48,366 bases of DNA from Klebsiella phage KpnP_VR7901: the sequence record OM103162.1; one strand, written 5' to 3'. A program made the position numbers and the translations under genes. Below are positions 1 to 40,048 of the stretch, piece after piece. Within the stretch, counting starts at the first letter, position 1, and every line of letters starts with the position of its first letter. Under the pieces are notes generated by a model that ran no database searches, had not been told where the DNA came from, and saw only the letters and a program-made list of their open reading frames with translations.

Positions 1-1752
1 ATGGCAAGTAAAGTAGCCAGCCTTACTTCAGAACTACATCCAGACAATGCATCAGACTGGATTGTACGTCTGTGGGACAATTTTCACAACCAACGCCGTG
101 TTAAAGTAGATGAGTGGAAAGAACTGCGTAATTACATCTTTGCCACAGATACACGTTCTACTTCCAACCAAACGCTGCCTTGGAAAAACTCTACTACAAT
201 TCCTAAGATTTGTCAGATTAGGGACAACCTCCATTCAAATTATATCAGCGCTCTTTTCCCCAATGACAATTGGCTATTATGGGAAGCAGCGGATATGGAC
301 AGCGCCACTCGTCAGAAAGCGGACACCATCAAGGCGTATATGGATAATAAGACGCGGATGGGCCATTTCCAGACAGAAATGAGCAAGCTGCTGTATGACT
401 ATATCGACTACGGCAATGCCATTGCTACAGTAACCTTTGAGCGTAATTACCATGAACTTAATGGGGAACTTATCTCTGAATACGTTGGACCTCGCGTCTA
501 CCGGGTTTCTCCTCTGGATATTGTTTTTAATCCTTTAGCAGCTACCTTCGATGAAAGCTTCAAGATTGTACGTTCTGTACGCACTCTAGGGGACCTTGCA
601 AAGCTTGCTAAGACCAACCCTGACCAAGCCTATTGGCAGAAGGTAATCGACGACCGTGAGCGCTTACGTGAGCATTTTGGGGCATATACGATTGAGGACT
701 GGGATAAGTACGAAGGGTTCCAAGTAGATGGCTTTGGGAACATGTACGAATACTACATGTCAGACTTTGTAGAAATTCTTGAGTTCTATGGAGACTGGTA
801 CGACATTGCCAACCGGGAGCTGCATGAGAACGTTCATATTGTCATTACAGACCGCCGTGCAGTGTTGCACGAGGAACCTATTCCTAACTGGTTCGGCACT
901 TCACCATTCTTCCATGTAGGATGGCGTTTCCGCTCTGACAACTTGTGGGCTATGGGGCCTCTGGATAACCTTGTTGGTATGCAATATCGCATCGACCACT
1001 TGGAAAACCTTAAAGCGGATGCTATGGACCTTGCTGTCCACCCAATGCTTAAGATTATCGGTGATGTGGAAGACTTCGATTGGGAACCGGGCGGGCGTAT
1101 CTATTTAGACAGCGATGGAGACGTTCAGGAGCTTGGCATGGGACTCAATGGAGTCATTGCAGCCAACAACGAAATAAACCTCTTAGAGCAGCGTATGGAG
1201 ACGTATGCAGGCGCTCCTAGAGAAGCTATGGGGATTCGTTCTCCGGGGGAGAAAACTGCATTCGAAGTACAACAGCTCCAGAATGCCGGTGGCCGCATCT
1301 TCCAAGAGAAAATTACCAATTTTGAGATTGAACTCTTAGAACCTGTCCTTAATGCTATGTTGGAAACTTCTCGTAGGAACATGGACGGAAGTGACACCAT
1401 CCGCGTAATGGATGGGGATACAGGAGCTGCTCTGTTTGAAACAATTACCAAAGAGGACATTGTAGCCACAGGACGTTTACGTCCAGTAGGTGCTCGTCAC
1501 TTTGCTAAACAGGCTCAAGACCTGCAGAACTTGATGGGTGTATTCTCTAATCCAGCTGTTACGCAGATGATTGCTCCTCACGTATCTGCCATCAATCTTA
1601 CGCAGTTCATTGAGGATGTAACAGGTCTTAAAGGTTATGGCATCTTCAGTCCTAATGTGGCTGTCGGTGAGAACCAAGAGACAGCTCGTCAGGCTGGTCA
1701 GGCCCAAGAGGACTTGGCTGTTGAACAATCTGTTGGTGCAGGTGGTATGTAA
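1..1752 (+). CDS. portal (head-tail connector) protein
   Basis: 583-aa ORF immediately downstream (by circular wrap) of the large terminase and upstream of scaffold/capsid, the T7-like order. The size is typical of podovirus portals. No motif-level proof. Confidence 0.65.
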   Translation: MASKVASLTSELHPDNASDWIVRLWDNFHNQRRVKVDEWKELRNYIFATDTRSTSNQTLPWKNSTTIPKICQIRDNLHSNYISALFPNDNWLLWEAADMDSATRQKADTIKAYMDNKTRMGHFQTEMSKLLYDYIDYGNAIATVTFERNYHELNGELISEYVGPRVYRVSPLDIVFNPLAATFDESFKIVRSVRTLGDLAKLAKTNPDQAYWQKVIDDRERLREHFGAYTIEDWDKYEGFQVDGFGNMYEYYMSDFVEILEFYGDWYDIANRELHENVHIVITDRRAVLHEEPIPNWFGTSPFFHVGWRFRSDNLWAMGPLDNLVGMQYRIDHLENLKADAMDLAVHPMLKIIGDVEDFDWEPGGRIYLDSDGDVQELGMGLNGVIAANNEINLLEQRMETYAGAPREAMGIRSPGEKTAFEVQQLQNAGGRIFQEKITNFEIELLEPVLNAMLETSRRNMDGSDTIRVMDGDTGAALFETITKEDIVATGRLRPVGARHFAKQAQDLQNLMGVFSNPAVTQMIAPHVSAINLTQFIEDVTGLKGYGIFSPNVAVGENQETARQAGQAQEDLAVEQSVGAGGM

Positions 1753-2015
1753 TGAATACGCTATGGACTAAAGGGTTGAAACGCGGAAGTCAAGAGGCTA
1801 AGGATATTCAGGACGCTTTCAAGGCGTCCTCCTTCCTGAGACGAAGAATGATGGAGATGCTCCAGTCTATGTTAGACGAGGAGCTTTCTTCTAAAACTTC
1901 TGATAACGCGTATGACAACCCTAATTGGGCATTTAAACAAGCTGATTCAGTAGGTTACGCGAGAGCCATCAAGAGAATGATGTCTACGCTAGAAGAAAAA
2001 GAAAAAAATATTTAA
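1752..2015 (+). CDS. hypothetical protein (head module)
   Basis: 87-aa ORF. Its ATG overlaps the portal stop (TAATG). Confidence 0.4.
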   Translation: MNTLWTKGLKRGSQEAKDIQDAFKASSFLRRRMMEMLQSMLDEELSSKTSDNAYDNPNWAFKQADSVGYARAIKRMMSTLEEKEKNI

Positions 2016-2056
2016 TAGAAAGTTGTACGAACTTGCAACTAAGAATGGTTATATAG

Positions 2057-2115
2057 TATGGGGGATTTAGGGGGCATAGTTAATTATATAATATTTAATA
2101 TAATAATTAATTACT
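2057..2115. repeat. G-box (GTATGGGGGATTTAGGGGGCAT) plus AT-rich tract; copy A of a 2-copy direct repeat
   Basis: Seen directly. An almost identical box at 39548..39571 is also followed by a TATAAT-rich AT tract. This copy lies between the head gene and scaffold. Confidence 0.6.
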
Positions 2116-2179
2116 CTTAAATCTTCTATAACAATTAAAGTATAAACCCTTATACTTAATAATACAGGAATTATTAGTC

Positions 2180-2926
2180 ATGACTGACATTTTTGAACAG
2201 AAGCCAACTACCCAAGAGGCTCCTGAAGTAACTAATACGTCTTCTGCGGACATCTTTGCCCACCAGCTTATGTCCATTAAGAATGAACGCGGTGAACCTA
2301 AGTATAACTCGATTGAAACTGCTCTTGACGCGTTAAAGCATAGCCAAGAATACATTCCCCAGATTAAATCTGAGGCGGAACGTTGGAAGGCAGAAGCTGA
2401 GCGGCTCCAAGCAGAACTTGCACAACGTGCGTCTATCGAAGATACTATCTCCAAGTTCACCCCCCAACGTACACCTGAAGCACCTTCTACCACCACTGAA
2501 GCACCGAAGGCGTTGGATGAAAGCGCTGTTGAAGCAATGTTACAGCGTGCTCTCACTGCCCGTGAGCAAAAGCAATTAGCCGAACAGAACCTTTCTGCGG
2601 TATCTGCCCAGCTTACTCAGAAGTATGGTGAGAAAGCAAAAGAAGTTCTAGCCAGTAAAGCTGCTGAATTGGGAATGTCTATGGAGAGCGTAAAACAAAT
2701 CGCAAGCTCCAGCCCATCTGCGGTATTAGCATGGTTTAACACTTCCTCTCCTGCGCCTTCAGGCGCTCCTGTGCGGTCAACAGTATCGCTCCCGGACACC
2801 CCTCGAGACACCGAGTTGAAAAGTCCGAGTAAGTCGCTGCTCCGTGGAGCCTCATCTAAAGACCAGATTGAGTTCCTGAAGAAGATTAGGGAAGAGGTTT
2901 ATCGGAAACACGATATTGACAGTTAA
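2180..2926 (+). CDS. scaffolding protein
   Basis: 248 aa, acidic, Ala/Glu/Gln-rich with predicted coiled coil, placed between portal and major capsid. RBS AGGAAT precedes the ATG. Confidence 0.65.
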   Translation: MTDIFEQKPTTQEAPEVTNTSSADIFAHQLMSIKNERGEPKYNSIETALDALKHSQEYIPQIKSEAERWKAEAERLQAELAQRASIEDTISKFTPQRTPEAPSTTTEAPKALDESAVEAMLQRALTAREQKQLAEQNLSAVSAQLTQKYGEKAKEVLASKAAELGMSMESVKQIASSSPSAVLAWFNTSSPAPSGAPVRSTVSLPDTPRDTELKSPSKSLLRGASSKDQIEFLKKIREEVYRKHDIDS

Positions 2927-4263: not shown

Positions 4264-4270
4264 GAACTCT

Positions 4271-4300
4271 GGGGAGGCTTCGGCCTCCCTTTTTTGTTTC
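4271..4300 (+). terminator. rho-independent terminator after capsid genes
   Basis: Stem GGGAGGC-TTCG-GCCTCCC followed by TTTTTTGTTT. Confidence 0.8.
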
Positions 4301-4313
4301 TATGGAGAGTTAA

Positions 4314-8382: not shown

Positions 8383-11300
8383 ATGGCAGAGCTTGACCAG
8401 TTTAACACAGGCGCAACTAATGATTTGGCAGACTTTCAAACTGACGACCAGCTTGCTGCTCCGGTGACGAACGCAAGCTCTAACCAAAACATTGCTGCCC
8501 ATGTATCAATGCTATCATCCAATCCTGGAGATACGGCTGGTACATACAACACCATTCGCGATGAATATGATACGCTTGGCTACAGCCCTACAGCCGATGA
8601 GGTGACTAAGGCTGCTAAGGAAGATAACACACAAGCCTATCGTCGCTCCTCAGCCGATTTCTTAACCAACCCAGCAGTGGCTGATGAGTTTAAAGCTAAT
8701 GCTCTTGCTCGTATCAATGACCCCAATTCTGACTTATATCGTCTACGAGCTATGGTTGGTACGCAGGAAGCAGCGAAACCTGCCCCGAATGAGACGCAAG
8801 AAGCAGCTTCAATGCGCGGGGTGTGGGCAGCAGGAATCAACACTGTTCTTGAATACCAGCGTGAAAAGCAGAAGATTTATAATCAAATGCAGCTGGAGCA
8901 GGACGCTACTAAAACTGCCACCTATGTGGGGATGGCTGAAGACCTTGTTCCAACTGTGTGGGGATACAAAGCTGCATCTCTGGCGCAGGATATTGCGGGG
9001 GGTGGGGTATTATCTAAAATCTGGGGAACAATTCTCCCCGGAGAGGCCACAAAAGAGGCAGCAGACGCGTTTAACAAAATCCCATTTGAACAACGTGCCG
9101 CTGCTCTCCAGAAAGTTGTAGACATGGCTGCTGAACGTGGCTCCACTATCTTCCTCCCAGAAGAGCGTGACCACGCCAACTTCGCCCTTGTGCGTAGTAT
9201 GACTGAAACAGGCGATTTTGATGTCACTGACAGGACTGTTGCCAACGTAATCGGGGTATTGGATGTAACAGGGTTGCTGGGAGCCATTAAACTTGTTGGC
9301 GGGACGGCTGCGGCCGCCACAAGAACATTGCGAGCCGGTGATGACCTAGCGGAAGGGGCCCGGTTTGGAGGAGGTTCCCCAAGAAGGCCGTCTCCTCAGA
9401 CAGACTGGAAAACTGGAAAACAAGAGGGCCCTCGTACATTCGACCAAGAGGGGAATCTGGTTACAGGGAATGAGGTAGCTGTCAGTAATGCCCGTAGGCA
9501 GTTCACCACTACTGATGTACAGCCCACATCTCTCTCGCAGGTAATTAAAGATGCTAATCCAGAAATGGCTCGTAATCTTTTTCAGGCTGTTGAAAAAGAC
9601 ACTACTGGAGATATCGCAAATGGTGCTTTTGGTGCTAGTCGTGAAGATGCTATTGCACATAGCGTCTCCCCTCAAGTAGCCACTGAGAGCGGGTCGGTCT
9701 CCTCCAAGACTTCCCACCCAGAGCGTAACTCTGACTTTGAGTTCATGCCTGATGCTGACGTTATCAACTGGTATTCCAACAGCTCTGGATTCTCCCATCT
9801 CACACTGTCTGAGAAAGCTGCCCTAGACGCTAACGTAACTAATGACTTCATGAACACGCTTGGAATGGTGGCCCGTAAAGAAATGTCTTCTATTTCTGCG
9901 GAAGGGGGGCCTCTTAACATTAAAGCCGTATATGGCCCATCTGACAGCGGATGGTCTAGTGTTAAAGATGCTGTAGACAAGGCTCAGTATGCACTGCGTA
10001 AATATGGCATAACTCAGGATGAGATTGAAATCCTAGTTCGTCGGGGGGATGACTATGCCCCTATATCTAAGGAGGACAAAGCCGCTCTTCTCGCCGGAAA
10101 GGGAGCGGAGCTTAATGGGGACTACCTGTTACAAATTAGCCATAAGTATAACTATGACCACTTAGACTTGGACGCACCGCAGTTCAGTTCTCTGGATGTT
10201 AAATGGAACTATACAGACCGTTTTTCAAAAGCTCCGGGCTCTTCCGGGGAGGGGTCTTTCACCACTAACCTGTTCACTCCCGATTCCATCTACCACCCTG
10301 ACCTAATGAAGGGTGCTGTAGTAGCAGGTACAAGAGGGGCCCGTCTGGAGAAGCTTCTGCACAAAGCTGCCGATGACTTCATCAAAGGAACTAAGACCTT
10401 AAACTGGGGACGTGTCCGAGCCTTGGATGATAAAATCAAGGAGATGAACTTCAAAGGGCAGCCTCTGAATTATGCCCAGTTGCGTGCAGAGGGATTCAGC
10501 CAGAAAGAGATTGGAATGCTCGAAAGCTGGAAGAGCGTACAAGATACTAACTGGTGGCTGAACAACCAAGCTGTTGTGCGTAACTATCAGAAACGTGGGT
10601 ATGGTCTGTTAGAGATTCCAGAGGTAGGTTTCAAGAAAGCTGCCCGGGATTTATCAGCGTCCCGTGTTGCCGATAATACAGCTGTCTACGACGCTCTTAC
10701 AGACACTGTGCGTAATCTGTCCCGTCATGAGATAGATACCCTGTACGCAGAAGGAAAGGCTGTTTCTAAAATGGCTCACTCTATAGATGTGAACGGGGTA
10801 AAAGCTCTGCACGTCATCAACCCTAATGCAGCAGGTAAAGGATATATCAGAGCTTTCCGTCAGGATGATGTAATGCTCAACTATCGTCATGGCTACTATG
10901 CTGTACGCTATAAAGACCCGCACTTCATTGAGCGTAAGGTTACTGATGGCTCAGGCAATGTGTCTTGGGAAGCCATTGCTACGGCGCCCGACGCAGTCAG
11001 CGCCAACAAGTATATGACGAGCATGACAGAGAAAGCCGGTGGTGAATACCGAGTACGTGGGGACTATCGTGGAGGTGACAGGGATAAAGCGGAGGGGCAG
11101 GTAATGCTATCCGGAGGAATGTCTGCAGAGCGTCTACGCGGTAAGCGCTTAGAGAATGCTTACGGGACTAATGCGGGCATGGAACATATGCACATTCAAT
11201 CCCCTTCCGAGAGCTTGATGGCATCAATCAGAGCATTGTCAGACCGAGTGTCTTATCAGAACTGGAGTGATACAGCTAAGGCGCGTTTCATGGCACAGTT

Positions 11301-23141: not shown

Positions 23142-23870
23142 TTACCACGGATTGTCATCGTCTTCTCCTTCTGTCACATCAGGCTCTACAGGCTCCTGTA
23201 CGGGCTTCTCAGCCACTTTCTCCTCCTTCTTGACCTGCCCTGCAGCCTGCCCCTCTAAAGCTACCTGAAGCTTGCTTCCTTCGAAATCCAAGTTAGCCTT
23301 AATCCGCTCCTGAATCCACTCAGGGAATGAACGGAAGATATCAAGGTCTGGCTCATCCAGAGAGAACACCTTAGGCTCATTCTTAAGTTCTGCCACCATC
23401 ATGCCCTTCATTGGCTTGGAGACATTCCCCACCTTAGCACTGCCATTCTTCTTATGCGCTACAGTTACTGCACAAGGAGCTGTCAACACTTTCCCCCAAT
23501 CTCCTTGATAGAGGGAGAAGTCTGGGTCAAATGCCTTCATACGCTTAGTGGAAGTGGCAAGGTCACTGTCCAATGCGTATAGAGGGAACTCCTCTGACAG
23601 CCAACGCGGCTTATCCTCCAGCTCATTACCTGCTTCATCCTTCATGAACTCTGTAGTGAATTCATAAGTGAGGCGCAGTAGGTGAACAGGAGCTTTATCA
23701 TATGCCACCTCAAACTTCTTAGTTGCGTCATTCCACACTTCCTTGTGGTGACGTCCCATGTCAATCACTTGGGCCACACGGCATGGATAGTTGTCCACTG
23801 GCAATTCTTCTTGCTTAACGCGGTTAGCTGCTGGACGTTTCGGAGTAGTAGCGGGTGCTTTTAAAGCCAT
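23142..23870 (-). CDS. putative single-stranded DNA-binding protein
   Basis: 242 aa with an acidic C-terminal tail ending EGEDDDNPW (compare the DDDIPF-type SSB tails). Sits in the replication cluster. Inference only. Confidence 0.4.
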   Translation of the reverse strand: MALKAPATTPKRPAANRVKQEELPVDNYPCRVAQVIDMGRHHKEVWNDATKKFEVAYDKAPVHLLRLTYEFTTEFMKDEAGNELEDKPRWLSEEFPLYALDSDLATSTKRMKAFDPDFSLYQGDWGKVLTAPCAVTVAHKKNGSAKVGNVSKPMKGMMVAELKNEPKVFSLDEPDLDIFRSFPEWIQERIKANLDFEGSKLQVALEGQAAGQVKKEEKVAEKPVQEPVEPDVTEGEDDDNPW

Positions 23871-26800: not shown

Positions 26801-27276
26801 TTCAAAGCCTCTCTCACTTTATTTGCATGGAACCTAACAGTGGTGAAAGGCACCCCAACAATCTCTGTCACTGTACGTAATGCCACTCCCTCCAACAGAT
26901 GTAAATACAGCCCTGTCTTCATTGGCTCTTTATAACGCTCAATAAGCTTTAAGGCATTCTCTGCTGTACTAAGGGCCTTCCATTTATCCTCCACCTCTCC
27001 ACCGAATGTATGATGCTCATCAATCTCTTCAGCGTCAATGCGGTCAGACATATAGTCTTTAATACGATTAAACAATGCAGCCCTCATTAAATATTTAATG
27101 TCATAACGACCATGTAAGCGAGGAGCTGCCTTTAGGAGAGCTTCATACGTATCCATCAGGGCATCCTCTGCCCATAGATTCCCTAATTTATTATTAGCAA
27201 TACGTAGAAGGTTCTTATAATCTGTACGGAAGTTCTCCTCAATCAATCCGTACATAGTGTCTGAGGTGTAAGTCAT
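26797..27276 (-). CDS. ECF-like sigma factor (sigma-70 regions 2 and 4)
   Basis: Region 2-like YLMRAALFNRIKDYMSDR. Region 4 HTH LYLHLLEGVALRTVTEIVGVPFTTVRFHANKVREALK. The start is placed at ATG 27276 (ATGA overlap with the upstream stop); the track ORF extends to 27390. Confidence 0.6.
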   Translation of the reverse strand: MTYTSDTMYGLIEENFRTDYKNLLRIANNKLGNLWAEDALMDTYEALLKAAPRLHGRYDIKYLMRAALFNRIKDYMSDRIDAEEIDEHHTFGGEVEDKWKALSTAENALKLIERYKEPMKTGLYLHLLEGVALRTVTEIVGVPFTTVRFHANKVREALK

Positions 27277-27851
27277 TTTCCGTGCCTCTCTGTGTACCCC
27301 AGTCTGGCGGCAACCTCTGCCCTCACAGAACAAGCCTCTTCGTAGGTGTCGTACTGACCAATACTGATGTTTGACACAATCACCCTCCACTTGCTGTTAT
27401 CTTTTCTAAAATAAACCCCCGTCGCCCCACTACTGTTGTCCTTGCGCTTCTTCATGTTTCGGCTATTAACCTCTACGTTTGCATCTCTAAGATTTACCCA
27501 CCTATTATCATCTCTAACTCCGTTCATATGGTCTACGCATTCAGGCCAAGCCCCCAGCATATACATAAAGGCGAGTCGATGAGCTTGATACTGAAGACCT
27601 TTCATGCCGGGGACGCTGATTCTTACATAACCCTTCCCTGTGATGAATCCAACCTCATCCCCGGCCCTATGATGTTTAGTATCTACTCTCGTGGTAAATA
27701 TGCCAGTCTCTGGATTATAATCCAATACCTCTCTTAAATACTCTTTTGTAATCATAGTTCTGTAAACATCCCATTTGCTTTGTTCCAGTATAAGTTTGTT
27801 GGACCAACTTCTCCGAATTCCCTGTCCTCCAAGAGAACAAGTTGTCGGCAA
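27273..27851 (-). CDS. HNH endonuclease with AP2-like domain
   Basis: VDHMNGVRDDNRWVNLRDA HNH_3-type, then GVYFRKDNSKWRVIV...YDTYEEACSVRAEVAARLGY. Confidence 0.6.
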   Translation of the reverse strand: MPTTCSLGGQGIRRSWSNKLILEQSKWDVYRTMITKEYLREVLDYNPETGIFTTRVDTKHHRAGDEVGFITGKGYVRISVPGMKGLQYQAHRLAFMYMLGAWPECVDHMNGVRDDNRWVNLRDANVEVNSRNMKKRKDNSSGATGVYFRKDNSKWRVIVSNISIGQYDTYEEACSVRAEVAARLGYTERHGK

Positions 27852-30119: not shown

Positions 30120-30328
30120 TTATTCTCCAATTCAACATGGACAGGTATTAGTTCCCACCCCACCTCTGTAAGACTCTCTACTGAGTGAGTACCAGTCCCC
30201 CATTTCCCGGATGGGAAGCGAACGTGTCCAGTTTTAATATTAAAATAAAATCCCTCAAGGTCTCTGTATACCATCTGGTGTGTAATTTCATCCATTGAAC
30301 ACCTCCTGAAAGCGTTGCTTATAACCAT
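30116..30328 (-). CDS. small protein, C-terminal -ELENK
   Basis: 70 aa. TTG GAG AAT AAA TGA overlaps the next ATG. Confidence 0.55.
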   Translation of the reverse strand: MVISNAFRRCSMDEITHQMVYRDLEGFYFNIKTGHVRFPSGKWGTGTHSVESLTEVGWELIPVHVELENK

Positions 30329-31058
30329 CCAGCGTAGTGCCTGACAGGCCCGGAGCCGTGTTCACCTCTAACACATAATACTTATCTTCACGAGCATTAA
30401 AGATGAGGTCTACAGCCCCAAAATCAAGTCCTAATGCAGCTACAGCCTTAACAGCCTCCTCAGACGCTACAGGAGAAGCTACAACGCCTTCACGAGCGAA
30501 GATAAACCCACCATCAAGGTTACGCACTTGCCAGTTCACAGCGTCGTCTGGGACGTCACGTTTACGTGCTTTACGCTGAATGTCCACCACTTGCCCCATG
30601 AATACATGGTAACGATATTCTTCCTGCTTTTTCACATAAGCAGTGTAGAGAGGAGCCAGTACAACGGCGTCGCTGTTATCACAAATAACAATACCAGCCC
30701 CGCTATGCCCATTAAGGACAGTGCGGCATACAACGCTTGAGTTAGGAGTATTTTGAAGATATTCACATGCGTCAGCCTTACTTGTGAAGAATGGGGGGAT
30801 AGTGACACCGGCTTCTTGGAAAAGTTCAAAACTTTTTAATTTATTTGAGGCTTTACGAATGGCCTCTGGCTTGTTGAGGATGCGTTGACATGCCATCACT
30901 TGGTCAGGCAATGTGCCAGCTCCCCAATTGATGATAGCTTTTCCCATTCCCCCACGGAACTTGCTGTTGCCATGCTTGATGCGTTTTACGTTCAACGCTT
31001 GAGATAGGAGCTTAGCCCCTTCAGAATGCGGATTGTGTGAATAGATGTACACTTTCAT
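30288..31058 (-). CDS. ATP-grasp ligase (RimK/GshB-like)
   Basis: C-terminal ATP-grasp signature DKYYVLEVNTAPGLSG and a Lys/Gly-rich N-terminal nucleotide-binding region. Confidence 0.65.
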   Translation of the reverse strand: MKVYIYSHNPHSEGAKLLSQALNVKRIKHGNSKFRGGMGKAIINWGAGTLPDQVMACQRILNKPEAIRKASNKLKSFELFQEAGVTIPPFFTSKADACEYLQNTPNSSVVCRTVLNGHSGAGIVICDNSDAVVLAPLYTAYVKKQEEYRYHVFMGQVVDIQRKARKRDVPDDAVNWQVRNLDGGFIFAREGVVASPVASEEAVKAVAALGLDFGAVDLIFNAREDKYYVLEVNTAPGLSGTTLDGYKQRFQEVFNG

Positions 31059-31117
31059 TTATTTATTCTCCAGAGAAAATGGAGCTAGCATGAGGGTGTA
31101 AAAGGGCAGAGAGGTCC

Positions 31118-31258
31118 TCATGAGATTCCCCCTTTCCCATCATCACGCCTGAACCAAAAAAGATTTTCATCAATTTTTTTTTCAACTGTAGCACAAGACT
31201 TCTCCCAAGAGCTGCCTTTTAAATTGATGAACTGTACTCTGTCACCTACATTGTACAT
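31118..31258 (-). CDS. small protein (GDxV paralogue, 46 aa)
   Basis: The track ORF 31118..31363 overlaps the upstream gene by 104 nt. The internal ATG 31258 (MYNVGDRVQF...) sits 1 nt after that gene's TAA. Confidence 0.4.
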   Translation of the reverse strand: MYNVGDRVQFINLKGSSWEKSCATVEKKIDENLFWFRRDDGKGGIS

Positions 31259-31259
31259 A

Positions 31260-32066
31260 TTACCAATCCCCCAAATAAGCAAATTGTTGTACACGACGAA
31301 TGCTGTCGTAGACAGACAATTCATATTTCTCTTCCCAAGGGATGTCCTTAGCGTATTTACCAAGAATCATCTTGTAGAAACCTTCTGGCCGCAGGTCACT
31401 CACTGAATAGACAACAGCGGTTGGGTTGTCAATCTCACGCGCCAGTCCTTTCAGATGTTGCAACAGCCCGCACCACCATTCAATAGCCGCTAAATCCCCA
31501 TCAGAGCGCCACGCTCTAAACTCAAGGGAGCCATAGTCCCCCAGAGCTTTAACGTTCACAGAGGCATAGCGGAGGTCGTCAGTGTGCAGTACAGACAGGT
31601 TTTGCTCTTTAATTGCAACACCCAGCATGTCAATCAAATATTCAGCGTCACACGCTCTCAGGCAGAACAGGTTGCCAATACGATGCTGCCCGCAGGTGTT
31701 CACCAGAATGTCTTCCACCACCAGATATAGAGACAGGAAGTTGAACAACTGCGTCACTGTCAAATCCCCACAGTTGATGTGAACATGCACACCAGCATTA
31801 GGGCTGTCTTTAATAACAGCTTCATTGCTTTTCCAAGCTTCTTCCATTAACGCTAAGGCCATCTTCGTTTCATTAAATGGAATGGGCTTCCGCAATACAT
31901 ATTCAAAGCTCTCTCCGCGTAAAGAGGGGTCGTTCTCACTCTTCCACACACCGTCTTCTACACGAGGGAGGTTAGTCCCTTCTGCCTCAATCTCAATACC
32001 AATATGGTCGGTGAGACGGCTCTGGAGCTTCAACACATCACGCACTAATTTTCTTTCAAAGGACAT
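31260..32066 (-). CDS. carboxylate-amine ligase, GCS2/YbdK/PafA-like amidoligase (copy 1)
   Basis: GIEIEAEG (compare YbdK GIELEMQV), ESFEYVL, NAGVHVHINCGD (compare QHVHVGCASGD), GSLEFRAWRSD (compare GTVEVRVMD). Confidence 0.6.
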   Translation of the reverse strand: MSFERKLVRDVLKLQSRLTDHIGIEIEAEGTNLPRVEDGVWKSENDPSLRGESFEYVLRKPIPFNETKMALALMEEAWKSNEAVIKDSPNAGVHVHINCGDLTVTQLFNFLSLYLVVEDILVNTCGQHRIGNLFCLRACDAEYLIDMLGVAIKEQNLSVLHTDDLRYASVNVKALGDYGSLEFRAWRSDGDLAAIEWWCGLLQHLKGLAREIDNPTAVVYSVSDLRPEGFYKMILGKYAKDIPWEEKYELSVYDSIRRVQQFAYLGDW

Positions 32067-32306
32067 TTATTTATTCTCCAACACTATATTTTCATGCTTC
32101 AATTCAGTATAGTGAACAAAATACCCGGAGGTATCTGTATGTTCGGCCAGTCCAAAGTTATGGTGCCCTTCGTAGAAGTTTTCAAACACAACTCCTAGGA
32201 ATCCGCTGTCCTCCCCTCTGGGTCCAAAACACACTACCTTACCCACCTTCCTCTTAAGAAAGCTTGTATGCCCAGTAAATTTAACACGATCCCCTACTTT
32301 AAACAT
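32067..32306 (-). CDS. small protein MFKVGDRVKF..., C-terminal -IVLENK
   Basis: 79 aa. TTG GAG AAT AAA TAA ATG junction. Confidence 0.55.
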   Translation of the reverse strand: MFKVGDRVKFTGHTSFLKRKVGKVVCFGPRGEDSGFLGVVFENFYEGHHNFGLAEHTDTSGYFVHYTELKHENIVLENK

Positions 32307-32887
32307 AGCGCTAACACCTCTTGCAGATAGAAACGTTCAGGCATGAGCTTAACACTCTGGTCTCCTACATACCCCACTACATCTCCACGATACATAAGAC
32401 ACAGCTCATCTTCTTTATCAGCTACAGCCCATTCACGATGGAAAGGGACAATCTTAGAAGCTCCAGAGCGTACAGCTTGGAATGCTTCTCCAATGTCAGG
32501 GAAGTCCCCTACAATCGTCTTAGCGACGCTTTTACTGAAAGGGCTCACCTCACTACGTCCCTGTCCAAATAAACGCTCTATGGGCTTCTCAAGGGCGTTA
32601 AAAGCGAAGAAGTTCTCCTGTGTCAGCCCTTGCTTGTATTTACGGACAGGTTTACGCATTGAGAAGAATACACGGCCACGGTCATCAATGACATAGCCCA
32701 GCTTAGCTGCATCAGGGGCCAAGTTGAGAGCTTCAATGCGTACAGAGCTGCTACGTCCTGTCAGCAAATCCTTTACAATCACCTTGTCCTTGCTCTCTGC
32801 TGCCTGAACAACAACAGGACGCTTCTCCCACATCACTAATGAATGACGCAGGCGAAGCTCTACATCTCTTTCGCTTTCGTAATACAT
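32294..32887 (-). CDS. hypothetical protein
   Basis: 197 aa, no recognisable motif. Embedded in the ligase cluster. Confidence 0.45.
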   Translation of the reverse strand: MYYESERDVELRLRHSLVMWEKRPVVVQAAESKDKVIVKDLLTGRSSSVRIEALNLAPDAAKLGYVIDDRGRVFFSMRKPVRKYKQGLTQENFFAFNALEKPIERLFGQGRSEVSPFSKSVAKTIVGDFPDIGEAFQAVRSGASKIVPFHREWAVADKEDELCLMYRGDVVGYVGDQSVKLMPERFYLQEVLALCLK

Positions 32888-33087
32888 TATTTATTCTCCA
32901 AGCTGGGAATATAAACATCAAATTCACATTCCCTTTCATCAAAATTGCAAATACCGCCTTTCGGGAGGTCTACAGTAATCAGGTCCCCGGGAAGCACTTC
33001 GAAATACCCAGACATGGCTTCTTTGCACACCTCGCAATTGCCACATGTGGTTTTTATAAGCCTAACCTTATCTCCAACATTAATCAT
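32887..33087 (-). CDS. small Cys-rich protein MINVGDKVRL..., C-terminal -PSLENK
   Basis: 66 aa, CGNCEVC plus C..C (possible zinc ribbon). TTG GAG AAT AAA TAA TG junction. Confidence 0.55.
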   Translation of the reverse strand: MINVGDKVRLIKTTCGNCEVCKEAMSGYFEVLPGDLITVDLPKGGICNFDERECEFDVYIPSLENK

Positions 33088-33899
33088 AATACAATCCCCG
33101 CTGGGAGAAGCAGCCCCTCTTCCTTGATGATGCGGGAAGCAGATGCCTTATCCGAAGTGTTGACAATACGTTGAGCTTCATCCCCGTATTTATCGAACAG
33201 GGAAACGCCCCGCTCAATACGCTCCATAGCGTCCATAGATGCCTTGTATGCCCAACGCTTCAGGTTGTCATCCTTCAGCCACTGATTGGAGAGAGTTCGG
33301 TATTCCATGCCATATTTCTTAGGACGGAATGCACCAGCTTTGCCGTACAGCTCACGACGTTTAGTGTCACTGTCGTAGAACAGAGAAGGAAGGCCCAGAT
33401 AGAAGTCCAGCTCCCGCACTTTAGCCGCCAGCCAAGCAATATAATCTGCATCATTCACTGGAGCATCATTACCAGTTTCAGGCAAGCCGAAGTGTATATG
33501 ACCAGCAGCAGAGCGGAACGGGAGTTCCCCGTTAGGACGTGGGTTAACATCGACAGTGTATGCGTCATAATCAGGGTCACAGCCAAGCTCCTTAGCTTCT
33601 TCTGGTTGAGCACGAATGTATTCAAAGCCGAAGTCTGCTACCGGGATGCACTCCAGCTTGTAGTCCGGCACCATGCTTGCCAAGATTTCCATGACGCCGT
33701 TGATATTGTCCATCCACGCCTGCTCACTATCTGCCGCGTCGATGTTAAATTCAAGGGCCATGCCATCCACTTGGACAGCACCACGATTTACTTTGAGGGG
33801 GTCGTGTTTACTGCCTTTGATGAGGCCATGAGCACTCACCAGTTTACCGTTACGAGAAACAAAAATTTCCGGGTCAGCACCAATTAAGATTTTAGACAT
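33084..33899 (-). CDS. carboxylate-amine ligase, GCS2/PafA-like amidoligase (copy 2)
   Basis: IGADPEIFV, GMALEFNI, AGHIHFGLPE, GMEYRTLSNQW: the same four-motif pattern as copy 1 and YbdK. Confidence 0.55.
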   Translation of the reverse strand: MSKILIGADPEIFVSRNGKLVSAHGLIKGSKHDPLKVNRGAVQVDGMALEFNIDAADSEQAWMDNINGVMEILASMVPDYKLECIPVADFGFEYIRAQPEEAKELGCDPDYDAYTVDVNPRPNGELPFRSAAGHIHFGLPETGNDAPVNDADYIAWLAAKVRELDFYLGLPSLFYDSDTKRRELYGKAGAFRPKKYGMEYRTLSNQWLKDDNLKRWAYKASMDAMERIERGVSLFDKYGDEAQRIVNTSDKASASRIIKEEGLLLPAGIVL

Positions 33900-33926
33900 G
33901 ATATATTCCTATGTTTGATGATAGCA

Positions 33927-35231
33927 TTAATTTGATAAAGTTTTTACACGGCATCCGGGAAGGAGGCGGCTACGCTGTTCACTAGTTAGCCCCTTGATAT
34001 CTTCCCAACAGGTCTTACAACAAATGTGGGCATCAGGAGAGGTGTAATACTCCTTCACTAACGTGCGGCAATACGAGCAACCCACTTTATAATTGAACTT
34101 ATGAAACTTCACCCCCGCTGGGAGCTGTTCCTCCTTCTTGCTTTCAGCTAAGGCAGCCTCTTCTAAATCCTCTAGCGTATAATAACATTTATCCGCTGTA
34201 TAGATAGAGAGGTATAGCCCAGCCTGTCCTGAATAATTCACTTTAGCAGTGAACACCATTTTATCTTCTGCCCACATCTCAGTGACTAAATCGTCATGAA
34301 CATCCAGCCTTACTTGAGTGATGCGGATAGGAACATCTTTGAGAGTTTTACCGATGATGTCTACATAATTGGCACCGTTCTGTACAAAATCACGGATGGT
34401 GTCCACTGTAAACTCTACAAAGTCACCGGTGTTTACGCCCTCTCTGTCGAGCCATTTGTCTTCTTCTCCCCAGCTTCTGCTGTAATTTCCGTAATAGCTT
34501 CCCGACCACTTTGGGGCTACATACGGCTCAACCTTAGTGGTCGTCCAGTCCACAATGTCGGTTGCTTTTTCAGGGAGAGTAAATTTATAGTGCATATCAA
34601 TCTGCACTTCACGGGGGGGTTCATCAAGCTTTAAGTCTTGACGCCCACAGGCTGCATGAATCATCCAGAATTCAGAAGCCCACACCAGAGTGCGTCCTTT
34701 GTTAGCTGTGCTAAACCACAAAGGGCGCTCTTTATTACGCAGGAAGTTAACAGTGTTGTCTGTCTTATCAATCCACGTTAAGGCGGCTGCTCCGTTTAAC
34801 TTGCCCCACAGAGAAGCTACGCCATTCTGGTTAAGCTCAGAGAATGCAGCTTGGCTATCCACTGCGTATTTCTCTTGCTCGAACAGGGTGTATTGGGAAA
34901 GAAGACTGCCGTTGTGTGCCCCAATAATATTAGGGAATTCAAATGGATGGGCATTCTCCTGAATGATGGCCCCCTTAGTGGCCCAACGATTGTGACCAAT
35001 AAGGATGTGATGCTTCTTAGCCATCAAATCAGAGAAGCCTTTCAAGTCCATGAAATCAACAGCGTTAAGCTTGTCCTTAAACACAGCTGTCTTGAATTCA
35101 TTCCCAATCTTATGCAATGAAGCAATGCCAGTGGAATGCTTCCCACGGATAACATCTAACAAGAGAAGGTCTTTAAACACTTTCTCTTCTTTAAAGGAGA
35201 TGTCTCCTGCCAGTCCAACGAGTCCGCAAAT
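33927..35231 (-). CDS. class II (Ntn) glutamine amidotransferase domain protein with Cys-rich C-terminal domain
   Basis: CGLVGLAGDIS (compare GlmS MCGIVG), LIGHNRWATKGAIIQENAHPF (compare [21 protein letters not shown]), GAHNGSL (compare HNGIIEN). The catalytic Cys codon (35228..35226) lies upstream of the first canonical start (GTG 35180). The only in-frame candidate start is ATT 35231..35229, 7 nt after a GGAGGA RBS. Confidence 0.55.
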   Translation of the reverse strand: MCGLVGLAGDISFKEEKVFKDLLLLDVIRGKHSTGIASLHKIGNEFKTAVFKDKLNAVDFMDLKGFSDLMAKKHHILIGHNRWATKGAIIQENAHPFEFPNIIGAHNGSLLSQYTLFEQEKYAVDSQAAFSELNQNGVASLWGKLNGAAALTWIDKTDNTVNFLRNKERPLWFSTANKGRTLVWASEFWMIHAACGRQDLKLDEPPREVQIDMHYKFTLPEKATDIVDWTTTKVEPYVAPKWSGSYYGNYSRSWGEEDKWLDREGVNTGDFVEFTVDTIRDFVQNGANYVDIIGKTLKDVPIRITQVRLDVHDDLVTEMWAEDKMVFTAKVNYSGQAGLYLSIYTADKCYYTLEDLEEAALAESKKEEQLPAGVKFHKFNYKVGCSYCRTLVKEYYTSPDAHICCKTCWEDIKGLTSEQRSRLLPGCRVKTLSN

Positions 35232-35262
35232 AGTATTATCCTCCGAAAGCCTGTGGCTTTGC

Positions 35263-35517
35263 TTATTTATTTTCTAAAGACAGATTGAAGAATTCAAGGT
35301 CGTCCTCATGGAACCACCAACCCCAGTCTATACCAAATTCTGGAGCGTGTAGGTATACGCTGTTGTATCCGATTCTTTTAACTTCCATGGGAAATCCTGA
35401 CACAGCAGCGCTCATGTTTCTCCCTCCGTCGCCACATTTAATTACTGTGAGGGAGTCGTCCCACATATCCAGAGGTATAGTGCAATATACAATATCCCCC
35501 TCTTTAAACTTGGGCAT
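35263..35517 (-). CDS. small protein MPKFKEGDIVY..., C-terminal -LSLENK (TTA GAA AAT AAA TAA)
   Basis: 84-aa ORF. A GDxV/SH3-like paralogue. Confidence 0.55.
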   Translation of the reverse strand: MPKFKEGDIVYCTIPLDMWDDSLTVIKCGDGGRNMSAAVSGFPMEVKRIGYNSVYLHAPEFGIDWGWWFHEDDLEFFNLSLENK

Positions 35518-36154
35518 ACAGCTCCTCCAGTTTATCGAAATACCATTGCTGACACGGGTGGTCTGAACTTACAAATTCAGGATGGGGTTGATAACAGAAC
35601 GCTTTAGTAGATGGGTAGAAACAAGCCTCCACTTCCACATCTGTATCTACATCCACTACTTCCCCCGGCTCTTCATGTGCAGGGGTCATCATGAATTTAC
35701 GAGAGCTGCGCATAACACTGCTCTTGCCCAACAAAATCCCGCACTCCCCGACAATCATCATCTGGTGGTGGAGAGAGGACACCGGGACCAGCTTACCAGT
35801 CTCTACATCCAGCATGTCATGAGTGCCATGAATGCCATGCCCCTTAACATCCTGATACATGTTACCACCAGACAGGGCATTGAGGAGCTGCCCGCCACGA
35901 CATACACCAGCAAGGAACTTGCCCTTCTGCTTTCCTTCTACAAAGGCTGCATACTCTTCACGGTCACGGCCCGGAGAGGTGTAGGTGGTGGGGTGTTCAT
36001 GTTGATTGTAGAACTTGGGGGAAATATCAGCTCCCCCCGTGAATTGTACAATGTCGGCCTCGTCAATGCTGTCTACGATTGTATAACCGCGCTTAGTGTA
36101 CATTGAATGGAATTGATGGAAGAAGGAAGTGCCTACGATGAATACTTTTTTCAT
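35504..36154 (-). CDS. class I glutamine amidotransferase-like / peptidase C26 (gamma-glutamyl hydrolase-like)
   Basis: Nucleophile elbow GVCRGGQLLN and C-terminal YQPHPEF (the vQfHPE motif). Confidence 0.6.
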   Translation of the reverse strand: MKKVFIVGTSFFHQFHSMYTKRGYTIVDSIDEADIVQFTGGADISPKFYNQHEHPTTYTSPGRDREEYAAFVEGKQKGKFLAGVCRGGQLLNALSGGNMYQDVKGHGIHGTHDMLDVETGKLVPVSSLHHQMMIVGECGILLGKSSVMRSSRKFMMTPAHEEPGEVVDVDTDVEVEACFYPSTKAFCYQPHPEFVSSDHPCQQWYFDKLEELYAQV

Positions 36155-38340: not shown

Positions 38341-38670
38341 CTATAATTCATCAGCTACACATGCCAAGACGAATCCTATAATAACGCCCAAAACAACACT
38401 CGCCCTGAATGTTGCCCAGCCCACCTGGCTAGCAGCCTCTTTAAAAACGGAAGCATCCCATGTAACGAACACAGCCCCTATTACGAGGATAATCCTTATC
38501 AAGTATAGCGCAACTATCACGACTGTTGTGCCCAACAGCCAAAGTCCAAAGAACTCTTTCATACCCCACCTCTTAAAAGTATTTCTTACCTTTCTGGTAA
38601 GCTGCCCGTTTACCTGTAGAAGTACGCAGGATGTGAGGAACAAAGTTGAATTGCTCCGTACCATCTTCAT
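38341..38670 (-). CDS. membrane protein
   Basis: 109 aa, three or more hydrophobic helices. Confidence 0.45.
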   Translation of the reverse strand: MKMVRSNSTLFLTSCVLLQVNGQLTRKVRNTFKRWGMKEFFGLWLLGTTVVIVALYLIRIILVIGAVFVTWDASVFKEAASQVGWATFRASVVLGVIIGFVLACVADEL

Positions 38671-38794
38671 TCAGCCGCCCATTGGGCACAGCCACAGTTT
38701 TAACAACCTTGTCGTTGTATTCACGTTCCGCAGAAGGAACGAAGCCAATCAGTTTACGCAGAAGTTTAGATTGTTTATGGCTCATAGTTTTCAC
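38573..38794 (-). CDS. small basic protein
   Basis: 73 aa. Overlaps the 38341..38670 ORF in another frame, so one of the two may be mis-started. Confidence 0.3.
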   Translation of the reverse strand: MKTMSHKQSKLLRKLIGFVPSAEREYNDKVVKTVAVPNGRLNEDGTEQFNFVPHILRTSTGKRAAYQKGKKYF

Positions 38795-39529
38795 CTATTT
38801 AAGTTTATAAAGTTTTTCCCAGCCTGCTAATGTTACGCTGTCTGGGGTTGTTATTTCATACGGCAGTGGGTTAAGGGGTACGCTGTCTTTATTGAACAGC
38901 GGGGATAGGTTTGCAATAAGCTGCATCTCAACGATGTGCATCATGCAATCAGGCAACTGTGTTACCCTTACATCTGTAACTTTGTATCTGATATCTTCGG
39001 TGTAGAACTTAGTGGGGTCGCTCAGATGCACTCTAAGACGGCTTCTCAAATCTAAGGACTTCCCTACATACAGGGGAACATCTCCGCTCCACACCTCATA
39101 CACGCCGCCTAAGATGCACATATCCTCCTTCATCTCTCTCTTTAGGGATGCTGCGGGGATTCTCCAGAGGATTCCTTCTTTGTCAGTGAATACCACCTTA
39201 GCTTGGGCAGGGTAGGGATATCCCTCCGTGGCTGAAGATATGTATTCTATGTCCTCAATGCACCATCCTTGCTTCCTCATCCAAGCTGTAAGCTCTGAGG
39301 TGTACGCAGCCTCATTGAATACCTTAACACGATGTTCCGCGTCATAGCTGGTATTTAGCGTCCCTTTCTCCTCCTTTACAGCCTTAACGGAGGCTGCATA
39401 GTATGACGCGTTAGTTCCAAGGTCTGACGCATGAGACCCATAGTCATAAGGAGCCTGTGCGGAGAGCCTCCCCTCTCCAAATCTTGCGATTTTATCAAAG
39501 AATTTTTTACTCATGTTGTACAAACTCAC
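38795..39529 (-). CDS. GIY-YIG nuclease-domain protein
   Basis: GGVYEVWSGDVPLYVGKSLDLRSRLRVH around residues 140-170 (GIY...YIG...R...H pattern). The domain is unusually central/C-terminal. Confidence 0.5.
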   Translation of the reverse strand: MSLYNMSKKFFDKIARFGEGRLSAQAPYDYGSHASDLGTNASYYAASVKAVKEEKGTLNTSYDAEHRVKVFNEAAYTSELTAWMRKQGWCIEDIEYISSATEGYPYPAQAKVVFTDKEGILWRIPAASLKREMKEDMCILGGVYEVWSGDVPLYVGKSLDLRSRLRVHLSDPTKFYTEDIRYKVTDVRVTQLPDCMMHIVEMQLIANLSPLFNKDSVPLNPLPYEITTPDSVTLAGWEKLYKLK

Positions 39530-39547
39530 GTTTAAAGGTGGATATAC

Positions 39548-39635
39548 TGTATGGGGGATTATAGGGGGGCATCCTTTTAGTCTTTTATTATTTATTTATT
39601 ATCTATTATAATTAATATAATATATAATAGAATGT
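39548..39635. repeat. G-box (GTATGGGGGATTATAGGGGGGCAT) plus AT-rich tract; copy B of the direct repeat
   Basis: Seen directly. Intergenic between the minus-strand genes 38795..39529 and 39672..39869. On the minus strand it reads CCCCCCTATAATCCCCC. Confidence 0.6.
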
Positions 39636-39671
39636 ATGAACGAATGAAATGAGTGAATGGCTAATAGAGTA

Positions 39672-39869
39672 TTAATCTACTCTTTCATAACCTTTATCCT
39701 TATGCCATAACATTAGATACTTTAGGAATGCTTGAGCTGTTAGCTCCGAGTCACTTGCGTTCTCAGAGAGCAACTCCCAGCCTTCACCATCACGCATAAG
39801 AAGGATGATAGCATTCCCTTCCTTGACCAGCTTGCGTACATCACCAGTCTTTTTGTTAGTGAATACCAT
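39672..39869 (-). CDS. small hypothetical protein
   Basis: 65 aa, preceded by the CTGGAGAATAAATAATG cassette. Confidence 0.45.
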   Translation of the reverse strand: MVFTNKKTGDVRKLVKEGNAIILLMRDGEGWELLSENASDSELTAQAFLKYLMLWHKDKGYERVD

Positions 39870-39874
39870 TATTT

Positions 39875-40048
39875 ATTCTCCAGCGTAATGGGTGGATGTT
39901 CTACAACCTCAAAGGTATCTGTACCTTCTTCAAGGTTACGCACCGTAAATACCGATGGATACCAAACGACTTTGTCACTGGAGAGGTACACCCTATCCCG
40001 GCTTACTTTGTAATACTTATGGTTGAGTTTGTTTCTGTAGAGAGTCAT
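39875..40048 (-). CDS. small protein (57 aa), C-terminal -ITLENK
   Basis: Hand-translated MTLYRNKLNHKYYKVSRDRVYLSSDKVVWYPSVFTVRNLEEGTDTFEVVEHPPITLENK. Falls below the 60-aa track cutoff. Confidence 0.5.

Follow-up and report, generated by a model that had tools for sequence, protein, structure and literature searches.

The promoter-early stem-loop (PeSL) cassettes of T4-like phages are repeated elements that mark the borders of gene insertions and deletions and mediate modular shuffling (PMC2839356, PMC4122927). In phage phiEco32, the middle and late promoters depend on the phage sigma factor gp36 and carry a single element, AATGTA, centered at -11.5 (PMC12276001). These systems provide the nearest frame for a short intergenic module that is present twice in Klebsiella phage KpnP_VR7901 (hereafter VR7901; OM103162.1), once upstream of the scaffold/capsid operon (copy A, at site A) and once in the early region (copy B, at site B); the window of the analysis is the whole 48,366-nt record, and coordinates are those of VR7901 unless another genome is named. 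In this phage the module contains two G runs separated by a short linker (the G-box), followed by an A/T-rich tract. Two further kinds of known system invite comparison, namely replication origins and the surroundings of endonuclease genes. The primary origin of T7 combines the phi1.1A/B promoters with an A/T-rich region, and oriF and oriG of T4 pair a promoter with a DNA unwinding element and are primed through an R-loop. I-TevI represses its own promoter via an operator, and free-standing GIY-YIG endonucleases of the Seg type have target sites.

The two copies constitute the longest two-copy direct repeat within VR7901 (repeat family D5). An earlier note, made from the sequence alone, had reported a repeat with two boxes; the repeat was confirmed, with the boxes placed at 2047-2077 (GGTTATATAGTATGGGGGATTTAGGGGGCAT) and 39537-39572 (GGTGGATATACTGTATGGGGGATTATAGGGGGGCAT), 1 nt away from the positions first given, and with a greater extent, as a gapped local alignment carried it leftward to GTTGTAC (2022-2077 versus 39515-39572) with 43 identities in 58 columns. 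The Smith-Waterman score of copy A against copy B was 42, compared with 25.5±2.5 (maximum 36) over 200 dinucleotide shuffles, and the 18-mer GGWTATAKWGTATGGGGG, searched with up to three mismatches, matched these two sites only, with 0.09 matches expected. At each site the box comes first and the A/T tract second, regardless of which way the neighboring genes run. In a genome of 46% GC, the tracts following the boxes hold the two most AT-rich 60-nt windows (91.7% each; the next reaches 81.7%) and bear out the description of several TATAAT hexamers, with two on the plus and one on the minus strand in tract A, three and one in tract B, and 40 on both strands of the entire genome. The statement that only two copies exist also holds for the full box, since a third plus-strand G-run pair (GGGGGTGTACGGGGGG, 43757-43772), upstream of the tail-fiber gene, shares nothing else with it. 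Apart from chance matches, close relatives of this species cluster were the sole hits in scans of viral and metagenome contigs for the box; by a rough estimate, ~20 chance occurrences of the exact 17-base pattern are expected in IMG/VR. The first half of the box alone (GTTGTACRAACTY) gave one further match with one mismatch, which falls within a tail gene (at 7303) and is not followed by a box. The Rfam 15 covariance models produced zero matches across VR7901 at the gathering score, and the four runs of at least three G in a short span that define an intramolecular G-quadruplex (two-tetrad and bimolecular forms aside) are not found, each copy having two G runs.

VR7901 is a Klebsiella podophage of the genus Citrovirus (Zobellviridae), 94-95% identical to vB_KpnP_Klyazma and 89-94% identical to vB_KpnP-Asterion, and has Citrobacter phage CVT22 and Erwinia phage Pecta as distant relatives. 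When the site-A element of each genome was aligned against the rest of the same genome (shuffle scores ~25±2.5), a significant second copy was found in all four genomes aligned, as listed in Table 1 for VR7901, Asterion, Pecta, and CVT22. The CVT22 copy detected in this way is inverted, and a direct copy is present in the early block of that genome too, at 44146-44173 (blastn, 89% over 28 nt, E = 0.001). Both sites are syntenic, with site A lying between ORF87 and the scaffold gene and site B between the gp75-like and gp74-like early genes, and the early-region copies share the orientation of copy A in every genome, a direct arrangement kept in four lineages. According to the earlier note, relatives without the box would, if no transcription or replication start were detected either, speak against a functional site; the G-box is indeed missing from Asterion, CVT22, and Pecta, but each of these keeps its own two-copy element at both syntenic sites and in the same orientation.

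The ORF87-scaffold gap contains the most AT-rich 60-nt window in five of five genomes (VR7901, Asterion, Klyazma, CVT22, and Pecta), and a sense TAGTAT is found at site A in VR7901, Klyazma, CVT22, Pecta, and L025, with Asterion exhibiting the variant TATACATAT...GGGTAT. Read from 5' to 3', the common core comprises a hairpin between A and T runs, GGAGT(C/G) (GGT in VR7901), and TATA..(T/C)(A/T)GTAT, which resembles a -10 element; in Asterion, CVT22, and Pecta the hairpin with its A/T-run flanks opens the module directly after the upstream stop codon. The sequence following the core is lineage-specific yet common to the copies of one genome, consisting of paired G runs in the VR7901 lineage, small GC hairpins (GAAACGAAGTTTC and CTTCGAACGAAG) in Asterion, and AAGAGATAAG and AGACGATAGG in CVT22. 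Judged from these comparisons, the G5-N5-G5/6 box is one lineage's version of a short cassette kept at two fixed sites in every Citrovirus genome, and the G-box is not its conserved core. The copies are alike within a genome and unlike between genomes, and at site A the difference between VR7901 and Asterion forms a sharp-edged patch of ~100 bp (~2025-2121) that is 40-50% identical, within flanks of 93-100%. The match between copies of the same genome, in combination with this sharp patch, indicates that the two loci were replaced in concert. Such a joint swap of sharp 100-bp patches at sites 11 kb (or 37 kb) apart, between near-identical phages, is an unusual pattern, and the co-variation implies either that the sites act together or that sequence is exchanged between them in a directed manner. 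For Citrovirus and the Zobellviridae, in which no transcription or replication signals have been mapped, the analysis also supplies two precise, conserved, and experimentally addressable sites, along with a separate seven-copy promoter-like class (TGCTATCATC).

Copy A occupies the 164-nt gap between ORF87 and the scaffold gene, and its TATAGT lies immediately 5' of the first G run on the plus strand. The plus-strand RNA of this region folds into a 75-nt hairpin whose stem is formed by G-C and G-U pairs and encloses an A/T palindrome, with a minimum free energy of -24.6 kcal/mol (-8.3 for the opposite strand) and z scores of -5.9 to -6.75, none of 300-500 shuffles folding equally well. In the stem as drawn from the sequence, all five non-Watson-Crick positions opposite G are G-U. 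Within 2022-2039, relatives L010 and L034-L036 carry TACGAC where VR7901 has TGCAAC, and both changes preserve the full pairing of the small plus-strand hairpin GUUGUA/U(G/A)C(A/G)AC via G-U/A-U exchange. The plus-strand RNA hairpins at site B are weaker than at site A, with z scores of -1.1 to -2.8.

Copy B is located in a 142-nt gap of the early block, and its left end adjoins the start codon of a GIY-YIG homing-endonuclease-like gene. The corresponding sequence (38800-39680) is missing from Asterion, in which site B exhibits a 22-nt A/T spacer in place of the 720-nt open reading frame (ORF) of VR7901, followed by GTTGTACAAAACGTGTTTTTTGGAGTGTATATAC..., the second copy of the Asterion site-A element (AAAGTTGCACAAATCGACTTTTTTGGAGTGTATATAC...). 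Because this empty site retains a module (B') with only the short spacer, the endonuclease arrived secondarily, as an ORF alone, between the gp74-like gene and a module already in place. Among relatives carrying endonuclease homologs, L021 (74% protein identity) has a box that is 83% identical to that of VR7901, as against 69% for the neighboring endonuclease gene and 52% for the A/T tract, which points to constraint on the box at site B. L041 (43% protein identity) has a G6-ATTTA-G6 box and A/T tract at the same relative position, and L042 (also 43%) has an Asterion-type GGAGTGTATATA module and no G-box. The gap in Asterion and the boxes of L021 and L041 first favored the box as an integral part of an endonuclease cassette, an idea rejected on finding the module without a GIY-YIG gene at the syntenic site of Asterion, CVT22, and Pecta. 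L048, with C5-N6-C5 and TATACTGTATA upstream of a GIY-YIG protein, proved a false lead, as it represents a bacterial cho/UvrC-like gene with a LexA box. An upstream ORF on the minus strand (ATG-CCC-CCC..., Met-Pro-Pro) over the endonuclease start was likewise discarded, its frame being broken by G5/G6 length variation in near-identical genomes and its ATG missing in L041.

We regard the module as probably a promoter/leader-type signal, a function that we infer from its sequence and position. The fuller interpretation that we tentatively favor, while rating it somewhat short of an even chance, is a composite terminator/promoter-leader cassette whose copy A would control the scaffold/capsid operon and whose G-box would form the 5' arm of the 75-nt plus-strand leader hairpin. 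With the same caution, the G-box may be described as a lineage-specific, promoter-proximal part of a composite intergenic control module. Such a cassette would consist, in order, of a hairpin between A and T runs just 3' of the upstream gene, a GGAGT(C/G) or GGT motif, the -10-like TATA..(T/C)(A/T)GTAT, a variable GC-containing box (G5-N5-6-G5/6 in the Klyazma-like lineage), and an A/T-rich tract. Transcription at copy A would probably start at or beside the first G run; the G-box would then provide the 5' arm of the leader hairpin, which could stabilize or process the most abundant late mRNA. Copy B would be a paralogous module in the early region that faces against the early genes, a short antisense or non-coding transcript being one possibility.

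In favor of this interpretation, in every genome copy A lies in sense immediately before the late genes with the highest expression, and the -10-like motif is the best-conserved piece across the genomes compared. The early-region copies all share the orientation of copy A, the hairpin at A is confined to plus-strand RNA, and phiEco32 sets a precedent for small phage sigma factors that read single-element promoters. A promoter or leader role for copy A is plausible because every Citrovirus examined has a homologous element in that gap, marked by an extreme A/T tract and a -10-like TAGTAT. The late promoter suggested in the earlier note is a reasonable proposal for copy A, which does lie in the operon control region, but no canonical sigma-70 promoter is present there. 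The minus-strand block exhibits a separate repeated motif, TGCTATCATC (GATGATAGCA on the plus strand), with seven copies versus 0.1 expected, six of which face minus-strand genes and one of which (8510-8519) faces late genes. From its extended -10-like TGnTATCAT, this motif probably represents an early/middle host-polymerase promoter class, and since that class serves the minus-strand block, the A/B module appears to be a different kind of signal.

Several observations weigh against the cassette. Sigma-70 promoter scans of both sites, for TTGACA-like and TATAAT-like hexamers 16-18 nt apart or an extended -10 element (TGnTATAAT), detected none in or beside either box: the distance from TTGTAC to TATAGT/TATACT is 21-23 nt, that from TTGCAA to the -10-like hexamer is 13-15 nt, and there is no TGn in register. 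Nor was a consistent -35 element across lineages found on inspection. Only two to three copies exist per genome, with none before the tail-fiber, terminase, or portal genes; a genome-wide scan with a weight matrix of the core (13 nt) gave no further convincing sites, and genome-wide promoter-family searches with TATAGTAT-type 8-mers, NNGTATGR, and TGTAT gave no enrichment. In view of this copy number and the lack of further sites, the module cannot be a general late promoter. Copy B faces against all of its neighbors, so that no gene presents itself as the target of a plus-strand promoter there, and because the -10-like motif is near-palindromic (ATACNGTAT), the sequence does not settle the acting strand. 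Asterion, CVT22, and Pecta have a terminator-like hairpin with a U run, of which VR7901 retains a degenerate form, and in VR7901 scans of 2016-2180 and 39515-39680 on both strands detected no intrinsic terminator, defined as a G+C-rich hairpin followed by a U run. The long leader hairpin is significant solely at the Klyazma-like site A (z scores of -1.7 in Asterion, -1.5 in CVT22, and +0.15 in Pecta) and moderately so in Asterion B', on which grounds a genus-wide conserved leader RNA structure was rejected. In the literature, we found no promoter, terminator, or origin mapping for Klyazma or CVT22 and no transcript data for any Citrovirus.

The phage sigma factor was also considered. VR7901 carries no RNA polymerase gene of its own and encodes a small sigma-like protein instead, which is a candidate for reading the module. 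The same features were noted for Klyazma in a study that compared it with phiEco32 and placed phiEco32 beside the Zobellviridae (PMC9960094). The sigma-like protein of VR7901 is 31% identical to that of CVT22 and 100% identical to that of Asterion. As Asterion lacks a G-box, the box does not determine sigma specificity. Co-evolution of the box with the phage sigma factor was rejected on the same evidence, and the link between the two drawn in the earlier note is left without support.

Among the alternatives, a transcription-primed replication origin at one or both sites is unlikely, although it accounts for several features. A promoter would fire into the G runs, an R-loop would form, and the A/T tract would serve as the unwinding element on which a T7-like primase/helicase and polymerase are loaded. 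Consistent with this, no stretches of the genome are more AT-rich than the two directly after the boxes, the order of box and A/T tract is constant despite the direction of the flanking genes, iteron-like GAATG(A) repeats lie beside the A/T tract at site B, and VR7901 encodes a T7-type primase/helicase, a DNA polymerase, and exonucleases. Site A also lies ~15% from the left end of Klyazma (7766 of 50298), and the T7 primary origin occupies a similar relative position. However, site B is not notably AT-rich in Asterion and CVT22, the absence of G runs from Asterion, CVT22, and Pecta means that an R-loop role cannot be general, and a strong promoter or translation enhancer would account equally well for an A/T-rich leader before the capsid genes.

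The resemblance of the copies could alternatively be maintained because their transcripts pair, which we consider rather improbable. Copy A would be transcribed rightward, within the late leader, and copy B leftward, within the polycistronic early/middle mRNA, so that the direct repeats would give rise to complementary RNAs. Their duplex, probably with RNase III, would couple late transcription to decay or translational shut-off of the mRNA immediately 5' of the endonuclease or gp74-like gene, or would curb early leakage of the scaffold/capsid genes. The direct orientation within oppositely transcribed blocks in four of four lineages fits this proposal, as does the fact that copies match within a genome while the best core differs between lineages, so that sequence identity itself looks conserved. 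The B(-) RNA is probably made, given the TGCTATCATC site at 39804-39813, ~230 nt upstream of B on the minus strand, and in VR7901 the homology extends to the endonuclease start codon, over its ribosome-binding region. The predicted A(+)/B(-) duplexes reach -39 to -70 kcal/mol, but a favorable duplex energy follows automatically from the presence of a repeat. The mismatched positions of the two copies also lack a wobble bias (12 wobble-compatible, 10 opposite transitions, and 30 transversions), and the third CVT22 copy is inverted. In a broader form, to which we assign a similarly low likelihood, A and B would be a functionally coupled pair obliged to match, either through at least 55 nt of antisense in the early/middle mRNA to the scaffold/capsid leader or through one lineage-specific factor binding both. 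If true, such coupling would explain the joint replacement between phages otherwise 90-95% identical and the direct orientation in opposite blocks kept genus-wide, and the GIY-YIG endonuclease at site B might be the vehicle that imports new variants.

A plain transcription boundary is quite unlikely. Here a bidirectional terminator hairpin would end the portal-ORF87 unit at site A and part early from middle genes at site B, with the rest of the module traveling along. The A/T-run-flanked hairpins found right after the upstream stop codon in three relatives and the additional CVT22 copy at the convergence of late and middle genes, a place where a terminator is expected, agree with this, but the hairpin of the VR7901 lineage has no U run, the scans were terminator-free at both sites, and the stems are nearly all A-U. 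The best within-genome conservation moreover falls downstream of the hairpin, in GGAGTGTATATAC of Asterion and GTATGGGGGATT of VR7901. The chance that the repeat is functionless, an old intergenic duplication whose similarity is upheld by occasional gene conversion, is about as slight. Frequent recombination among phages, the sharp-bordered patch replacement at site A, and the presence of merely two to three copies per genome would suit it. The pair is nevertheless kept, syntenic and in the same orientation, between genomes whose sigma-like proteins are only 31% identical, and the box is conserved above the neighboring coding and A/T sequence. Copies within one genome are 74-85% identical with short perfect cores, as opposed to the long identical tracts of recent conversion.

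A role tied to the endonuclease is very doubtful, whether the box is imagined as a GIY-YIG operator or as a homing or immunity site, with G-box alleles being cleavage-resistant versions driven into A and B. The box adjoins the endonuclease start codon and recurs beside the homologs of L021 and L041 (74% and 43% identical in protein sequence), all six endonuclease-bearing genomes or assemblies have a G-box at both sites, and Asterion has neither. Asterion A' and B' also share GTTG(C/T)ACAAA by the insertion point, so one enzyme could in principle cut both. Nonetheless, the module exists at site B without an endonuclease in Asterion, CVT22, and Pecta, L042 combines an endonuclease homolog with a module devoid of the G-box, the correlation rests on a single endonuclease-free close relative, and site A lies ~11 kb from the endonuclease gene, far past the usual co-conversion tracts. 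Finally, the idea that copy B is a minus-strand host sigma-70 promoter driving the endonuclease, with TATAAT in CCCCCC-TATAAT-CCCCC as its -10 element and the A/T tract as an UP element, can hardly be right: the hexamer between the C runs is perfect in VR7901 and Klyazma and the A/T tract lies upstream in that orientation, but L021 has TTAAT as its linker, and L041 and copy A have TAAAT, a variation that also deprives the minus-strand sigma site CCCCCCTATAATCCCCC of the earlier note of support, no -35 element or minus-strand site was detected in the scan, and the minus-strand block uses the other motif, TGCTATCATC.

Table 1. Positions of the module copies, their parts, and the associated genes and motifs
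Feature	Position	Strand or orientation	Remarks
Copy A: GTTGTAC..., -10-like TATAGT, G5-ATTTA-G5-CAT	2022..2077	+	local alignment with copy B
Copy B: GTTGTAC..., TATACT, G5-ATTATA-G6-CAT	39515..39572	+	local alignment with copy A
G-box A, GGGGGATTTAGGGGG	2060..2074	+	
G-box B, GGGGGATTATAGGGGGG	39553..39569	+	
Long imperfect hairpin, plus-strand RNA only; G-box pairs with ACTCTTAAATCTTCTATA (~2114-2131)	2057..2131	+	folding energy and shuffles
A/T tract A	2078..2139	+	tied with tract B as most AT-rich stretch
Small hairpin AAGTATAA-ACCC-TTATACTT, just 5' of the scaffold ribosome-binding site	2138..2157	+	identical in Klyazma and Asterion
A/T tract B, with C/U-rich G-box partner (39573-39588) and A/T palindrome	39573..39635	+	
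Purine-rich GAATG(A) repeats downstream of copy B	39627..39660	+	
ORF87 (phrog_8956), upstream of site A	1752..2015	+	
Scaffold protein gene (phrog_7931), first gene downstream of site A	2180..2926	+	
gp74-like early gene (MSHKQSKLLRK...), kept neighbor of site B	38573..38785	-	blastp: CVT22 gp74, Pecta 45858-46082, Asterion CDS0023
GIY-YIG homing-endonuclease-like gene, 239 aa, between module B and the gp74-like gene	38795..39514	-	Pfam GIY-YIG 22.6 bits; motifs GVY..YVGKS..R..H..E..N
gp75-like early gene, kept neighbor on the other flank of site B	39672..39869	-	
Phage sigma-like protein, 159 aa	26797..27276	-	weak matches: sigma region 2, ECF-type region 4
GATGATAGCA	33917, 37892, 39804, 41251, 42513, 42921	+	
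GATGATAGCA	8510	-	
Module pair, VR7901	site A 2022; second copy 39515	direct	early block; score 42
Module pair, Asterion (VR7901 orientation)	site A 6647; second copy 43875	direct	early block; score 59
Module pair, Pecta	site A 7383; second copy 46172	direct	early block; score 40
Module pair, CVT22	site A 6366; second copy 23232-23274	inverted	where late and middle genes converge; score 61

The VR7901 record is circularly permuted, and its late genes occupy the plus strand from 43960 to the record end and then from 1 to ~17966, with the early and middle genes on the minus strand from ~43700 down to 18324. At site B, GAATG(A) repeats similar to those of VR7901 follow the B copies in CVT22, Asterion, L021, and L042. 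In CVT22 (L027), GAATG(A)/GAACGAA repeats were observed at ~44230-44260 and, on the minus strand, at ~23190-23225, that is, also after the inverted third copy, and most repeats of the GAATG(A) type are missing in L031; these repeats look like iterons or the body of a non-coding RNA. Read in its own orientation, the inverted CVT22 copy is accompanied within ~170 nt by hairpins ending in T runs, a layout as expected for a small RNA gene. Just upstream of site B in the minus sense, an early gene (40045-40404, minus strand) matches the PHROG 'decoy of host sigma70', Srd anti-sigma factor, and HNH-like families, and fits a host-takeover early region.

Further signals were observed elsewhere in the genome. 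The G-run pair at 43757-43772 on the plus strand (AAGGGGGTGTACGGGGGG) is placed ~200 nt upstream of the tail-fiber gene, and the block following it up to ~43830 (GGTGCAT..CCCTCC..ATTTCTCACAAAAATT), which is conserved in Klyazma, CVT22, Pecta, and Asterion, lies near the terminal-repeat boundary; the region 43757-43830 could be a late-operon control or packaging-related site. After the capsid gene and the next 118-aa ORF, there is a strong intrinsic-terminator-like hairpin (GGGGAGGCTTCGGCCTCCCTTTTTT, 4264-4313), owing to which the tail genes would need read-through or another promoter. An HNH endonuclease ORF (HNH_3, phrog_99; 27273-27851, minus strand) separates the sigma-like and primase/helicase genes; at this locus only a 189-nt ORF is annotated in Klyazma, and in Asterion an HNH gene splits the primase/helicase. 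Homing endonucleases are numerous in these genomes and vary in position. On the minus strand, genes for ATP-grasp, amidoligase, COOH-NH2 ligase, glutamine amidotransferase, and aminotransferase proteins (named after the Klyazma, CVT22, and Asterion annotations) are clustered at ~30288-36154, a gene set characteristic of pathways that hypermodify DNA or protein.

In several independent assemblies from close relatives (metagenome and IMG/VR contigs L029, L030/L020, and L035), contig ends coincide with copy A or B or fall less than a hundred bases, namely within tens of bases, from them; the OGWW assembly is split into 44.3 kb and 6.2 kb, and the boxes form the start or the end of OGLO contigs. 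Short-read assembly is apparently interrupted by the G runs together with the extreme A/T tract, and as a practical matter metagenome assemblies of these phages tend to break at sites A and B. Site B is in addition a landing pad for a site-specific homing endonuclease, which bears on the shuffling of regulatory DNA in therapeutic Klebsiella phages.

In comparison with known systems, the module resembles the T7 and T4 origins in that a promoter-like element is followed by the most AT-rich DNA of a genome encoding a T7-type replisome, and G clusters on the non-template strand would favor R-loops. It differs from them in that the G clusters of VR7901 are confined to one lineage, one copy doubles as the upstream region of the capsid operon, and the promoter-like element is putative. 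With I-TevI and the Seg-type endonucleases it has in common a conserved sequence immediately 5' of a GIY-YIG gene, overlapping a promoter-like motif, as well as a presence/absence polymorphism of the endonuclease among near-identical phages; unlike those arrangements, the module predates the endonuclease and exists without it, its G-rich strand is antisense to the endonuclease gene, and its second copy lies ~11 kb off. The parallel with phiEco32 consists of a podophage without its own RNA polymerase, a small divergent sigma factor, and a single -10-like element containing GTA(T), the (T/C)(A/T)GTAT motif being common to most module copies. Here, however, (T/C)(A/T)GTAT(A/G) is a weak match to AATGTA, there are two to three sites per Citrovirus genome, the sigma-like protein of VR7901 has no tblastn match to one phiEco32 record, and the G-box varies while the sigma-like protein stays identical.

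The closest described class is that of the PeSLs, viewed as composite terminator/promoter cassettes of T4-like phages. Differences are evident in number and placement, as the Citrovirus module is present in two to three copies at fixed syntenic sites and PeSLs in dozens within hyperplastic regions, and also in the absence of a recognizable sigma-70 early promoter and in the one Citrovirus copy that faces against its gene block. The Citrovirus copies furthermore co-vary and are replaced in concert between lineages, and the Klyazma-like lineage adds the paired G runs and the extreme A/T tract. What both share is a short intergenic cassette in which a stem-loop precedes a promoter-like motif, repeated within the genome and bounded by sharp recombination borders, with insertions or replacements directly alongside it, represented here by the GIY-YIG ORF in VR7901, CDS0021 in Asterion, and a different right flank in L019.

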